NCBI GenBank assembly: GCA_000004695.1
Contig: CM000154.2
Span: forward strand, 1,888,001 to 1,952,000
DNA from: Dictyostelium discoideum
Lineage: Eukaryota
DNA: 64,000 nucleotides
Direction of reading: 5' to 3'
Shown here: positions 714 to 4,397 of the stretch, in pieces
How the letters are laid out: every line of letters begins with the position of its first letter
Position numbering within the stretch: the stretch's first letter is position 1
Position numbers and translations under genes: made by a program
Notes under the pieces: generated by a model
Databases searched by the model: none
Seen by the model: the letters and a program-made list of their open reading frames with translations, nothing else
Told to the model about the DNA's origin: nothing

Positions 714-735
714 ATGAGTAATAATATAAATTATA

Positions 736-768
<33 letters not shown>

Positions 769-1369
769 TTGATATACTGCCACCACTACCACCAACAGAA
801 ACATTATTACCACCATATCCACACCCACTTTCACCTCCTCCACCAACACCACCATCAACAGAAACATTATTACCACCATATCCACACACACATTCACTTT
901 CATCTCCACCACCTCCACCTCCACCACCACCACCACCACCACCACCAAGACATAGTTATATAAATTATCATGGATCATTTTCAAGGGGAGGTGCATTTAA
1001 AACCAAAGGATTTGTTGATCCTTCATTTTATAGTAGTAGTGTTTTAGTACCAATTAATAGGAATAGTCAATTCTCATTACATATTACATCAACTGAAACA
1101 GTTGTACAAAGAAAGAAATCATATACAGTATATGTAATTAGAGTTAAAAGTGATCAACATCAATGGGAAGTCGTTAGAAGATATAAACATTTTAGAGTAT
1201 TTTCAATTCAAATTAATAATGAGGTTTTTAATTCAAATTCATCCTCATCAACACCTTCTTCCACTTGTCCACCTTCTTCATCAACATCTTCACTTGGTAG
1301 TAGTAATAATAATATTAATAATACTAATACTACCAATAATAATCCCAATAATAATAATGCGAATATATT

Positions 1370-1434
<65 letters not shown>

Positions 1435-2033
1435 TAAATTTATCAACACAATTATCATTAACAAATTCAATACAATCATTTGAATTTCCATCAAAGAAAT
1501 TAATTGGTAATATGAATCCAAACTTTATAAAGAATCGTAAAGAACAATTGGAAAAGTTTTTACAATTGATAGCATCATCACAAGTTGCAAAGTTGTCTAG
1601 GAATTTAAAGGTATTCTTAGACCCAAACTTTTCACCATCATTACGTACACTCGTTAACCCATCTAAAGAAGGTTTCTTATACTTGTTAAAACCACAGAGT
1701 AAATATAGTTCATTATTAAATTCAAAGAAACAATGGATTAAAGTTTATTGTATTGCAACCAATTCGAATTTATTCTATTGGAAAAATAGAGAACAACCAT
1801 ATGCTGAAGCTAGAGGTGTAATTCAACTATGTCATTGTTCAACTAGAATTATGACAAAACAAGATAAAAAATGTATACAATTAAATGAAAATAGTAATAA
1901 TACTTCAAACAGTGGTGATAATTCAAAATATTTATTAACAAATTCAAAAGGTCATAAATCATTTAGTCATAAAATTAATCCAAATGATATTTATAATAAT
2001 ATAAATAATGTAAATAATAACAATAATAGCGCA

Positions 2034-2070
<37 letters not shown>

Positions 2071-2290
2071 TTGATAGTAATGAAGTATATTATTTATCAG
2101 CAGATTCTGATGTAATTTTAGAACAATGGGTTGAAACTATTGAAAAAGAAACTTTTAGATACCAAAAAGATATACAACAACAACAATCAGTATTAAATAA
2201 TAATACTCCACCACAAGCATTACAAGAACAATATCAACAACAAAAATATGATTCTAGTATTTTAAATATTGAAAATGATTATATAAATGC

Positions 2291-2373
<83 letters not shown>

Positions 2374-4397
2374 CTAATAAATTAAATGTTAGAAAATCAA
2401 TTAAAAAACTATATAAAGATGATGATATAATTGAAGAGATTGAAGAAGAATTTAAAAATAATGATAGTGAAACAAGTAAAGAATATAAATTATTAGAATC
2501 TGTACTTACAAATTCAAAATGTAAAGATTTATTAATTGATCCAAATTATGTAAATGATGATTCTTTTTCTTCCTCTTCAACTTGTTCAACTCCTTCTGCT
2601 TCAATTTTAAATTTAACAAAATCTTTAAATTTAAATACAAATTTACCAACTACTAGACCAAATACAAATACTACTACTACTACTACTACTGCAACTAGTA
2701 CGACTACAACGAATAAAAAGAAAATTAATAATGATGAAATTAGTTCAATTGAATTATTACATTCTGAAGAGATGACATATTTTGCAGAAAGGATTATACA
2801 TATGCATCAAAATACTGGTACTATTGGTAGTATAACCATTACAAATTATAGATTTTATTTTTCAGCGACGGTTGGTGATAAGATTATATCAATACCATTG
2901 ACAACCATTTCAAAGATATTTAAATGTGTTGGTTTCACATTGGATAAAGTTAAATATTATGCATTTGAATTGACTTGTAAAGATTTCAATCGAGCTCGAT
3001 TCATGCATTTACCAGGCTCATCACAACAAAAGGCGAATTCAAGATTGTTTGAGATATTGGAATCACTGATTTTCAAACAGAAACAACAGTATCATCAATT
3101 GTTTTGTTTCAAGAATGAGGAGATATTGGGCGGTTACGATGGTTGGAACATTTATCAAGCGTTGAAAGAATTTGCAAGACAGTCTATCCCTAACGAGGAT
3201 TGGAGGGTGTCGCATTACAATAACGATTACCAATTCTCGCCAACCTATCCAAACCTATTGATTGTGCCAAAGAGAATCACTGATCAGGAATTAATAAATA
3301 CCACTTCGTTTAGATCAAAAGGTAGAATACCAACATTGGTTTGGAAAAGTCCAAATTCAAATTCTGTAATAACAAGATGTAGTCAACCTGTAATTGGTGT
3401 AACAAAGAAACGTTCCCTAGATGATGAAAAATTAATCGAGTCAATACTTTTAGCGAATCCACAATCTGAAAAAGTTTACATTATGGATGCTAGACCTCAA
3501 CTAAATGCCGTTGCAAATCAAATGATGGGTTTAGGTTATGAAGATACAAATAATCAATCTTATAATAATTGTATTTTAAAATTTTTAAATATTGAAAATA
3601 TTCATAAAATGAGACATTCACAAAAGAAATTATTTAAATCAATTATGTCTGATTCTGTAATTTATGGTGAAAATAATAATAATAATATTAATAATAATAA
3701 TAGTAATAATGGTAGTGGTGGTAATGGTAATAATAATAATTTAAATTCAATTAATATTTTAAATTTAGAAGAATCAACTAGAGATTGGTTAGAACATATA
3801 AAGTCAATTTTAATTGGTACATTAGATATTGTTGATATTATTCAATTTTATAAATCATCAGTTGTAGTTCATTGTAGTGATGGTTGGGATAGAACAAGTC
3901 AATTATGTTCATTGGCTCAACTATTATTGGATCCTTATTATAGAACAGTGATTGGATTTCAAGTTTTAATTGAAAAGGAATGGTGTTCATTTGGTCATAA
4001 ATTTGAATCTAGAATTGGTCATACTGGTAAAAATGAAAAAAAGAGTGACGAATTGTCACCGATATTTTTACAATTTATCGATTGTGTTTGGCAAATTATG
4101 CAACAGAATCCAACGAGTTTTCAATTCAATTCAAAGTATTTATTAGAGATTATTCATCATTTATATAGTTGTCGTTTTGGTACTTTTCTATTCGATTGCC
4201 AAGAAAAACGTGTCTCTGCTAATCTTATGTCAAAAACTACAAGTATTTGGTCCTATATCAATCAAAATCATTCTCCATATTTCAATAAAAATTATATTTA
4301 TAATTCAAATGAACCACCAATAAGAATTGATACCTCTGAACTATCTTTATGGTCTGAATATTATTTACATTGGAGAAATTTTTATTTATCGAATTAA
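714..4397 (+). CDS. Myotubularin-related lipid phosphatase with N-terminal PX and PH domains plus a PH-GRAM domain (1227 aa, single exon)
   Basis: PX motifs: RRYKHF...FPSKKL...FL. PH: GFLYLLKP...WIKVYC...LFYW, split by a poly-Asn insertion. PH-GRAM: ITITNYRFYF...IPLTTISKI. Myotubularin catalytic loop: VVHCSDGWDRTSQ (CX5R intact). ORF is continuous and preceded by a poly-A/T promoter region. Confidence 0.85.

Follow-up and report, generated by a model that had tools for sequence, protein, structure and literature searches.

Whether a myotubularin phosphatase of Dictyostelium discoideum is fused within one polypeptide to N-terminal PX and PH domains, and what such domains would do upstream of a 3-phosphatase, are the questions raised by a long open reading frame (ORF) in the window, i.e. 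the whole stretch of 64,000 nucleotides analysed here (contig CM000154.2, positions 1,888,001 to 1,952,000). A first-pass annotation, made from the sequence letters, had proposed such a fusion, with two phosphoinositide-binding modules preceding a predicted active enzyme and long low-complexity insertions in both of them. The features of the locus are collected in Table 1.

A single, previously annotated gene encodes the whole protein

The ORF is as first described: it starts with ATG, encodes 1227 aa and has no internal stop in 3681 nt. Its sequence and 3684-bp span are those of D. discoideum DDB_G0288731 (aliases DDB0231579 and XP_001134519; chr5:1888714-1892397), an identity taken from the supplementary FASTA (Additional file 5) of the myotubularin survey of Kerk & Moorhead (2010), and dictyBase models the gene as one exon of the same length. 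An exact-sequence look-up gave no match, nor did any homologue search return a D. discoideum protein, the proteome seemingly lying outside the collections. GC content is 25-36% inside the ORF; because the surrounding DNA outside genes has only 11-16% GC, an ORF of 1227 codons is not a chance occurrence. The motifs on which the domain calls had been based lie at aa 155-160 (RRYKHF), aa 258-263 (FPSKKL) and aa 1051-1063 (VVHCSDGWDRTSQ).

A PX-PH protein and a myotubularin encoded by two genes, or a mis-joined ORF, would be compatible with the 200-aa low-complexity linker that sets the two halves apart. However, no stop codon occurs along the ORF, dictyBase has the same single exon, and single collinear proteins are found in D. 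citrinum, D. purpureum, Tieghemostelium, Heterostelium, Acytostelium and Synstelium, and also in Mastigella and Mastigamoeba. Judged by these sequences, a split gene has next to no probability and is already ruled out by existing evidence, and the single-gene reading holds. Two further ORFs overlapping the gene, at 685-996 on the opposite strand and at 1150-1437 in another frame, were rejected as repeat-tract translations (poly-Val, poly-His). The gene neighbourhood in the window consists of unrelated housekeeping genes, with no functional cluster.

The domain calls are right, and the finding is not new. DDB_G0288731 is one of nine predicted active myotubularins in D. discoideum; it is included in the 2010 survey, which has PX and PH among its accessory domains, and PH and PX domains are drawn among D. 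discoideum Mtm1-9 in Li et al. (2022, PMC8855053). The unusualness implied by the first-pass annotation is thus not borne out, and as a discovery the gene carries little weight. A literature search found no reports on lipid binding, localisation or activity of DDB_G0288731, and the identifier appears in no searchable main text. The value of the analysis is modest and lies in testable details for those who study how phosphoinositides are turned over during macropinocytosis and phagocytosis in Dictyostelium.

Table 1. Features of the DDB_G0288731 locus (positions in the window)
Feature	Position	Strand	Evidence
Complete single-exon CDS of DDB_G0288731 (1227 aa + stop)	714..4397	+	ORF list, Additional file 5, orthologues
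Asn-rich then Pro-rich N-terminus (aa 1-78)	714..947	+	
63-bp tandem duplication, in-frame	780..905	+	Repeat finder
PX N-terminal half (aa ~118-171; b1-b3, helix a1, R155-R156-Y157)	1065..1226	+	Pfam, SGK3 alignment, AF2
Ser/Asn-rich insert between PX a1 and the Pro-loop (aa 172-252), predicted disordered	1227..1469	+	AF2, alignments
PX C-terminal half (aa 253-306)	1470..1631	+	Pfam, SGK3 and dictyostelid alignments, AF2
PH strands b1-b6 (aa ~317-393; b2 = W341-I342-K343-V344-Y345-C346)	1662..1892	+	Pfam, AF2, alignments
Asn-rich insert, PH b6-b7 loop (aa ~394-455), predicted disordered	1893..2078	+	AF2, alignment
PH b7 and C-terminal helix (aa ~456-482, W472)	2079..2159	+	Dictyostelid alignment, AF2
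Low-complexity linker (aa 483-680): 27-Asn run, acidic patch, Thr-rich tract	2160..2753	+	
PH-GRAM domain (aa ~681-798)	2754..3107	+	MTMR2 structure sequences 1lw3/1zsq
Myotubularin phosphatase domain	3126..4376	+	Pfam aa 805-1166; MTMR2 alignment to aa 1221
Asn/Gly-rich insert in phosphatase domain (aa 977-1016)	3642..3761	+	MTMR2 and dictyostelid alignments
Catalytic loop H1053-R1060 (CX5R)	3870..3893	+	MTMR2 alignment, dictyostelid alignment

The myotubularin core is complete and predicted to be active

The Pfam search that had been suggested as a check returned PX, PH and Myotub-related, all exceeding the curated cut-offs. The phosphatase match (PF06602, E 3.9e-134) covers profile positions 14-351 of 352, and solved MTMR2, MTMR1, MTMR6 and MTMR8 match DDB_G0288731 at E 1e-94 to 1e-134. 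From the PH-GRAM to the C-terminus, the alignment with human MTMR2 (E 7e-134) reaches aa 1221. The Pfam GRAM model gave no match in DDB_G0288731, though it matches the D. purpureum orthologue; the proposed PH-GRAM is nevertheless borne out by the segment immediately N-terminal of the phosphatase, which aligns with residues 9-~190 of MTMR2 (1zsq). The catalytic loop H1053-C1054-S-D-G-W-D-R1060 is intact, with the Cys and Arg retained as claimed, and is invariant in seven dictyostelid sequences (DDB_G0288731 and six other dictyostelids). HCSDGWDR is the signature of active myotubularins (PMC2927912), and DDB_G0288731 is accordingly predicted from its intact loop to be an active PI3P / PI(3,5)P2 3-phosphatase.

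The PX domain appears able to bind PI3P

A PX domain is present: Pfam PX (PF00787) scores 47.8 bits against a cut-off of 21.6, split into two stretches. With the intervening insert excised, the closest solved PX is that of SGK3/CISK (E 2.8e-9), with the RRY, the PxK and the helix Arg aligned; in the AF2 model (7 sequences only; mean pLDDT 56, pTM 0.51) the PX superposes on that of SGK3 with a TM of 0.78 and an rmsd of 2.7-3.1 A. The C-terminal half comprises the FPSKK loop with K261, a helix with R275 and an invariant end, SRNLKVFLDPNF. Canonical PI3P contacts of PX domains are the Arg and Tyr of RR[YF], the Lys of the PxxPxK loop and the Arg of the next helix. R156, Y157, K261 and R275, which have their counterparts in the aligned PX sequences of SGK3 and Nischarin and are invariant in the seven dictyostelid sequences, are what we take to be these four contacts, by reference to the p40phox and SNX3 structures. 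The nearest solved PX domains are those of SGK3, SNX and KIF16B, which are PI3P binders. The PX of DDB_G0288731 thus looks competent for PI3P binding, although four residues alone are not enough to read PX specificity.

That the PX instead targets PI(3,5)P2 or another phosphoinositide, in which case recruitment would be later and endolysosomal and the enzyme would mainly convert PI(3,5)P2 to PI5P, appears unlikely in view of the presence and invariance of all four contact residues and of the kinship with SGK3, SNX and KIF16B. It would nonetheless fit the use of both PI3P and PI(3,5)P2 by myotubularins (PMC6563779), the activity of Dictyostelium Mtm6, which was shown to dephosphorylate PI(3,5)P2 (with high activity) and PI3P (PMC8855053), and SnxA, a Dictyostelium PX protein that serves as a PI(3,5)P2 sensor (PMC13637729).

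The PH domain has lost the residues of the canonical lipid pocket

The additional PH domain claimed upstream of the PH-GRAM was recovered at aa 317-479 (PF00169, 30.4 bits against a cut-off of 25.1). The AF2 model gives it strands b1-b7 and a C-terminal helix with W472 as the invariant Trp, and it superposes on the PH domains of DAPP1 (TM 0.73) and Grp1 (TM 0.70); Grp1/cytohesin is also the best solved match of the PH profile (E 2e-7). The Grp1 stretch T-W-K-R-R-W-F aligns with W341 to C346, so that Grp1 W-K-R-R is faced by W-I-K-V, and the canonical 3-phosphoinositide signature K-Xn-[KR]-X-R on b1/b2 is absent, I342 and V344 taking the Grp1 Lys/Arg positions. All dictyostelids have V or M at position W+3, where Mastigamoeba (WRHRW) and Mastigella (WKRRW) have R. 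The dictyostelid PH is thus predicted to be folded, but its sequence no longer has the basic residues that make up the canonical 3-phosphoinositide pocket. As the PH lacks this signature, only one of the two phosphoinositide-binding modules proposed at first, the PX with its lipid-binding signature, has sequence support. The loss of these basic residues suggests that the PH probably has a minor or other role: weak or non-specific membrane affinity, a protein contact, or that of a rigid spacer.

A different function for the PX-PH pair has to be weighed here, namely that of an intramolecular regulator (e.g. by autoinhibition) or a protein-interaction scaffold rather than mainly a membrane anchor. 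The PX-PH junction (SRNLKVFLDPNFSP...NP.KEG) does not vary among dictyostelids and can still be made out in Mastigella, suggesting that the two domains form a fixed unit; the PH is without the canonical pocket, and PH domains frequently mediate protein contacts (PMC2927912); moreover, the Mastigamoeba relative carries an SH3 domain and DDB_G0288731 a long poly-Pro tract. Against this, strict conservation of the PX lipid contacts would be hard to account for without lipid binding, and the occurrence of the cassette on RasGEF, RhoGEF and kinase domains (see below) fits a generic targeting module better, so that we give a regulator or scaffold only a small chance.

Overall, the best explanation is probably that this annotated myotubularin is a PX-recruited PI3P terminator whose PH pocket has been lost. 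Binding of PI3P by the PX would bring the enzyme to membranes of endosomes, macropinosomes or phagosomes that carry PI3P, where the phosphatase would meet its own substrate and end the 3-phosphoinositide signal in a self-limiting way. The sequence analysis shows the identity of the gene, its domain architecture, the conservation of the catalytic and PX signature residues, the position of the inserts in loops and the loss of the PH signature; lipid specificity, target membrane, activity and feedback logic are what we infer from the domains. Several points weigh against it: the 81-aa insert adjoining the PX Pro-loop could disturb membrane docking; four residues do not fix PX specificity, and SnxA, itself a PX protein, serves as a PI(3,5)P2 sensor; the AF2 model draws on only 7 sequences; and PH domains can bind lipids via non-canonical sites, the best single-sequence PDB match to this PH being the beta-spectrin PH, with a similar b2 (WHNVYC).

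Loop inserts and the N-terminal duplication

The insertions reported in both domains exist, but are longer than estimated. The PX insert has ~81 aa (38 Ser, 18 Asn) and not ~60, and the PH insert ~62-68 aa (aa ~389/394-455/456; 31 Asn) and not ~50. The former is confined to D. discoideum and D. citrinum, being missing from D. purpureum and deeper lineages; the latter varies across all dictyostelids, and Archamoebae have a short one or none. Inside the phosphatase, a ~12-residue MTMR2 loop is replaced by a third insert, N-rich and ~40 aa long, which reaches this length in no aligned dictyostelid other than D. discoideum and D. citrinum. This insert, like the 27-Asn run in the linker between PH and PH-GRAM, had gone unnoticed in the first reading. 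In the AF2 model, pLDDT falls below 50 exactly in the insert segments and is 70-88 in the flanking strands and helices; the inserts are thus predicted to lie in disordered loops. They would have arisen by expansion of trinucleotide repeats in particular lineages, tolerated because the loops are at the surface, and would serve no specific role. Being recent, disordered and dispensable-looking, they can probably be left out of constructs. Such tracts are commonplace in the D. discoideum genome; homopolymer runs of at least 10 residues occur in 4 of the 11 long ORFs of the window.

Of the first 94 aa, 31 are Pro, 14 of them in one run, and the N-terminus is weakly conserved across orthologues. 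The tandem duplication noted there is in-frame and encodes TETLLPPYPH twice, but its period is 63 bp (21 codons) rather than 60. The two copies (780-842 and 843-905) are 84% identical, with an exact core of 32 nt encoding TETLLPPYPH, and the duplication is absent in the D. citrinum orthologue. It was detected by the repeat finder, whereas TRF reported none.

PX-PH is a cassette shared among amoebozoan proteins

In the full-length word-indexed search, poly-Asn words dominated and only 9 matches came back, and word-indexed searches with spliced PX-PH and catalytic-segment queries gave few matches and no new PX-containing myotubularins. The informative homologue search was the exhaustive profile search, in which a large score gap (E 1e-87 to 2.5e-21) separates the orthologue group from other PX-PH proteins. 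In Archamoebae, Mastigella eilhardi (P0024/P0158) and Mastigamoeba balamuthi (P0028) have the same collinear PX-PH-PH-GRAM-phosphatase layout, with a conserved PX-PH linker and a core 34% identical to that of DDB_G0288731; unlike the latter, their PH domains retain the canonical W-[KR]-x-R and have no long loop inserts. A neighbour-joining tree of the phosphatase domain gives weak support (14-19 of 100 bootstraps) for orthology of dictyostelid and Archamoebae PX-PH-myotubularins, too little to decide for or against it, and we claim no orthology from it. The nearest non-myotubularin relatives of the module are amoebozoan PX-PH proteins (E 1e-21 to 1e-13 in the profile search) with different catalytic domains: PX-PH-RasGEF (Balamuthia, Pelomyxa), PX-PH-kinase (Acytostelium, D. 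purpureum) and PX-PH-RhoGEF (Stenamoeba). Going by these matches, PX-PH is a mobile amoebozoan cassette common to RasGEFs, RhoGEFs, kinases and myotubularins.

A tentative joint reading, which we hold possible rather than probable, is that the PX-PH-myotubularin is ancient, dating to the ancestor of Dictyostelia and Archamoebae, and that its PH once bound 3-phosphoinositides, the pocket being lost in dictyostelids (Arg to Val/Met) while the PX was kept. If so, coincidence detection would have given way in dictyostelids to PX-only recruitment or a new PH function, and DDB_G0288731 would work on macropinosomes and phagosomes as a PI3P 'timer' that is recruited by its substrate and extinguishes itself.

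Comparison with known myotubularins

The human MTM/MTMR family is described as having PH-GRAM, coiled-coil and PDZ-binding motif, with FYVE in some members and DENN and a C-terminal PH in MTMR5/13 (PMC6563779), consistent with the statement that a PX does not belong to the common metazoan arrangement. With human MTMR2 / MTM1 (1lw3, 1zsq), the PH-GRAM and phosphatase core of DDB_G0288731 aligns over its full length, with near identity in the P-loop and in the substrate-pocket sequence that flanks it. By comparison, DDB_G0288731 adds the N-terminal PX-PH cassette, a Pro-rich leader and the 40-aa Asn-rich loop insert, and ends ~6 residues past the phosphatase, with no coiled-coil / PDZ-binding tail. 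Pfam gave no FYVE match at E <= 1, and the phosphatase domain is followed at once by the C-terminus (aa 1227).

Within D. discoideum, Mtm6 is a paralogous active myotubularin with an accessory lipid-binding function (Li et al. 2022, PMC8855053): it binds PIP3 and PI(3,4)P2 and localises to the leading edge, whereas the PH of DDB_G0288731 is without the PIP3 signature. Identity of DDB_G0288731 with Mtm6 was rejected: the Mtm6 cloning primer is not in the window, and the protein termini differ. Among nine GFP-tagged Mtm proteins, only Mtm6 is reported to have polarised, PIP3-dependent leading-edge localisation (PMC8855053), which offers indirect support for the best explanation given above.

A functional parallel is offered by human MTMR3 / MTMR4, which likewise fuse a PI3P-recognition module to a PI3P / PI(3,5)P2 3-phosphatase (PMC6563779). 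In DDB_G0288731 the module is a PX and not a FYVE, stands N- and not C-terminally and is paired with a PH, and the likeness is one of function between modules that do not share ancestry, with the PX playing a role analogous to that of the FYVE in the animal enzymes.

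Results

The 714-4397 interval of the window, on the forward strand, is a single unbroken ORF of 1227 codons in the ORF listing. It begins with ATG and has a GC content of 25-36% versus 11-16% in the flanks, a contrast that is the dictyostelid gene pattern. Its sequence is identical to the entry DDB0231579 / DDB_G0288731 / XP_001134519 that Kerk & Moorhead 2010 (PMC2927912) give in their Additional file 5, where DDB_G0288731 is placed on D. discoideum chromosome 5, 1888714-1892397. The span of 3684 bp is the same in both cases, so the curated model is the identical single exon. 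A division into two genes is refuted by the one ORF and by the same architecture across Dictyostelia. Kerk & Moorhead count nine active myotubularins in D. discoideum and name PH and PX among the family's accessory domains (PMC2927912). Li et al. 2022 named these proteins Mtm1-9, tagged every one with GFP, and give PTP, PH, PX, TM and ANK domains in the legend of Figure S6A; of the nine they characterised Mtm6, a leading-edge protein that binds both PIP3 and PI(3,4)P2 (PMC8855053). We rejected identity of DDB_G0288731 with Mtm6 because the Mtm6 primers and termini do not match. A literature search on the gene ID found DDB_G0288731 named in no searchable main text. Neither the gene nor its domain architecture is new.

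The protein contains three Pfam families, each exceeding the curated cut-off. The first-pass annotation had thus rightly read it as a myotubularin with N-terminal PX and PH domains, and all motifs that it quoted were found. In a search of solved structures, human MTMR2 matched from the PH-GRAM domain to no more than six residues before the C-terminus (E 7e-134), the sole break being an Asn/Gly-rich segment (aa 977-1016).

Features of the DDB_G0288731 protein (aa) and of the surrounding DNA (window positions)
Feature	Position	Remark
RRYKHF	aa 155-160	
FPSKKL	aa 258-263	
VVHCSDGWDRTSQ	aa 1051-1063	
PX	two stretches	Pfam 47.8 bits, cut-off 21.6
PH	aa 317-479	Pfam 30.4 bits, cut-off 25.1
Myotub-related	aa 805-1166	Pfam E 3.9e-134
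Shadow ORF	685-996 (-)	103 aa
Shadow ORF	1150-1437 (+)	95 aa
63-bp tandem duplication	780-842 / 843-905	84% identity
L-P-P-Y codons	805-816, 868-879	within 780-905
~109-bp tandem duplication	4532-4639 / 4641-4748	86% identity
Inverted repeats	4564-4595/4609-4640, 4673-4704/4718-4749	32 nt, 13-nt loop, 91-94% complementary
213-aa ORF	4916-5557 (+)	
Acyl-CoA oxidase	7573-9531	
1148-aa ORF	17500-20946 (+)	N+Q+S+T = 64%
DMAP1-like SANT protein	24921-28049	
ABC1 atypical kinase	28080-29882 (-)	
M16 peptidase	54800-56005 (-)	
Cyclase-associated protein CAP	58096-59490	

With its insert excised, the PX domain had the SGK3/CISK PX as top match among solved structures (E 2.8e-9); Nischarin, a Vps5-like SNX, KIF16B and SNX14 came next. 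The alignment with SGK3/CISK pairs RRY with RRY, P-S-K with P-A-K and F-I-K-N-R with F-I-K-Q-R. R156, Y157, K261 and R275, which we take from the p40phox and SNX3 complexes to be the four PI3P contacts, are identical in all seven aligned dictyostelid sequences, and on the strength of these invariant residues the domain is predicted to bind PI3P. A PX of other specificity, e.g. for PI(3,5)P2, remains as a rival to this assignment.

As a single-sequence query, the PH domain showed weak similarity to solved PH domains, those of beta-spectrin, FARP1 and CERT among them. A profile including Archamoebae sequences gave Grp1/cytohesin as best match (E 2e-7) and set the register, with W341-I342-K343-V344-Y345-C346 opposite Grp1 T-W-K-R-R-W-F. 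At W+3 all dictyostelids have Val or Met, and the two Archamoebae, Mastigamoeba (WRHRW) and Mastigella (WKRRW), have Arg. Mutating the Arg at this position abolishes binding by Grp1, Akt and Btk. Owing to its replacement, the canonical 3-phosphoinositide signature is absent from the DDB_G0288731 PH in both the Grp1 alignment and the dictyostelid/Archamoebae comparison, and lipid binding by this domain is not supported by its sequence. The proposal of two phosphoinositide-binding modules therefore holds by signature for the PX but not for the PH. The missing signature fits the report of Li et al. 2022, who among nine tagged Mtm proteins describe only Mtm6 as polarised and PIP3-dependent (PMC8855053).

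In an AlphaFold2 model built for aa 95-486 from a 7-sequence alignment (mean pLDDT 56), PX b1-b3, a1 and later helices and PH b1-b6, b7 and the C-terminal helix reached pLDDT 70-88. Values below 50 fell precisely at the inserts, which lie between a1 and the Pro-loop (PX) and between b6 and b7 (PH). The folded parts superposed on the SGK3 PX with TM 0.78 and on the DAPP1 and Grp1 PH domains with TM 0.70-0.73. Only D. discoideum and D. citrinum carry the 81-aa PX insert and a full-length phosphatase-domain insert; the PH loop varies among all dictyostelids, and Archamoebae have a short one or none. In the DNA the inserts are trinucleotide arrays (ATC x22, TAA x30, AAT x13), and homopolymer runs of at least 10 residues occur in 4 of the 11 window ORFs of at least 300 aa, one of which has a 58-Asn run. 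The inserts are thus ordinary repeat expansion of the D. discoideum genome, tolerated in loops, and nothing protein-specific. Two shadow ORFs were dismissed as genes, being poly-Val/Tyr and poly-His readings of coding repeats on the opposite strand or in an alternative frame.

What the first-pass annotation observed was accurate save for small numerical corrections: the in-frame tandem duplication it described is real, but has a period of 63 bp, not 60. Each copy encodes L-P-P-Y, which fits the [LP]PxY WW-domain-binding motif, so that the duplication doubles the motif; a 14-Pro run comes after it. As D. citrinum has LLPPLP instead and the motif is unconserved there, a function of the pair is doubtful from sequence comparison.

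An intergenic tandem duplication of about 109 bp, each copy with an inverted repeat, is located past the stop codon of DDB_G0288731 and ahead of the next ORF. The 213-aa ORF beyond it has a hydrophobic N-terminus, perhaps a signal peptide, and a hydrophobic tail at the C-terminus, perhaps a GPI or TM anchor; the Pfam search gave no match. Neither did that of the 1148-aa ORF, which has twelve homopolymer runs of at least 10 residues, two of them poly-Asn runs of 58 and 43. The other neighbouring ORFs in the table, from acyl-CoA oxidase to CAP, are unrelated housekeeping genes.

PX + PH + Myotub-related proteins of like architecture were found throughout Dictyostelia: in D. citrinum (84% identity over 94% of the query, BLASTP), D. 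purpureum, Tieghemostelium lacteum, Heterostelium album, Acytostelium subglobosum and a Synstelium-like EukProt entry. An exhaustive search of 1.84 billion representatives with a PX-PH profile separated a tight orthologue group (E <= 1e-87) from the next matches (from 2.5e-21), and the closest relatives under this gap were amoebozoan without exception. They carry PX-PH on a RasGEF (Balamuthia, Pelomyxa), a kinase (Acytostelium, D. purpureum) or a RhoGEF (Stenamoeba), which makes PX-PH a mobile targeting cassette of amoebozoans.

When an HMM of the PH-GRAM and phosphatase core was searched against all retrieved proteins, the non-dictyostelid PX-PH-myotubularins came from two free-living Archamoebae. 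A neighbour-joining tree of the core supported the dictyostelid clade at 100/100 and its grouping with Archamoebae at 14-19/100; given the latter value, a single ancient fusion is plausible but not demonstrated.

Discussion

The best-supported reading is that DDB_G0288731 would act as a substrate-recruited phosphatase, its PX carrying a predicted active PI3P / PI(3,5)P2 3-phosphatase to PI3P-positive endocytic membranes and the PH and PH-GRAM domains supplying secondary contacts. That the PX-PH unit serves instead as a regulator or scaffold remains as a rival. The Mastigella eilhardi protein is collinear, with a core 34% identical and a recognisable PX-PH linker; that of Mastigamoeba balamuthi (P0028) has an extra SH3 (aa 316-368) between PH and PH-GRAM, a position occupied in the DDB_G0288731 protein by low-complexity linker only. 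For a phosphatase recruited to its substrate, the functional analogue would be the FYVE-bearing MTMR3/4 of the family description (PMC6563779).
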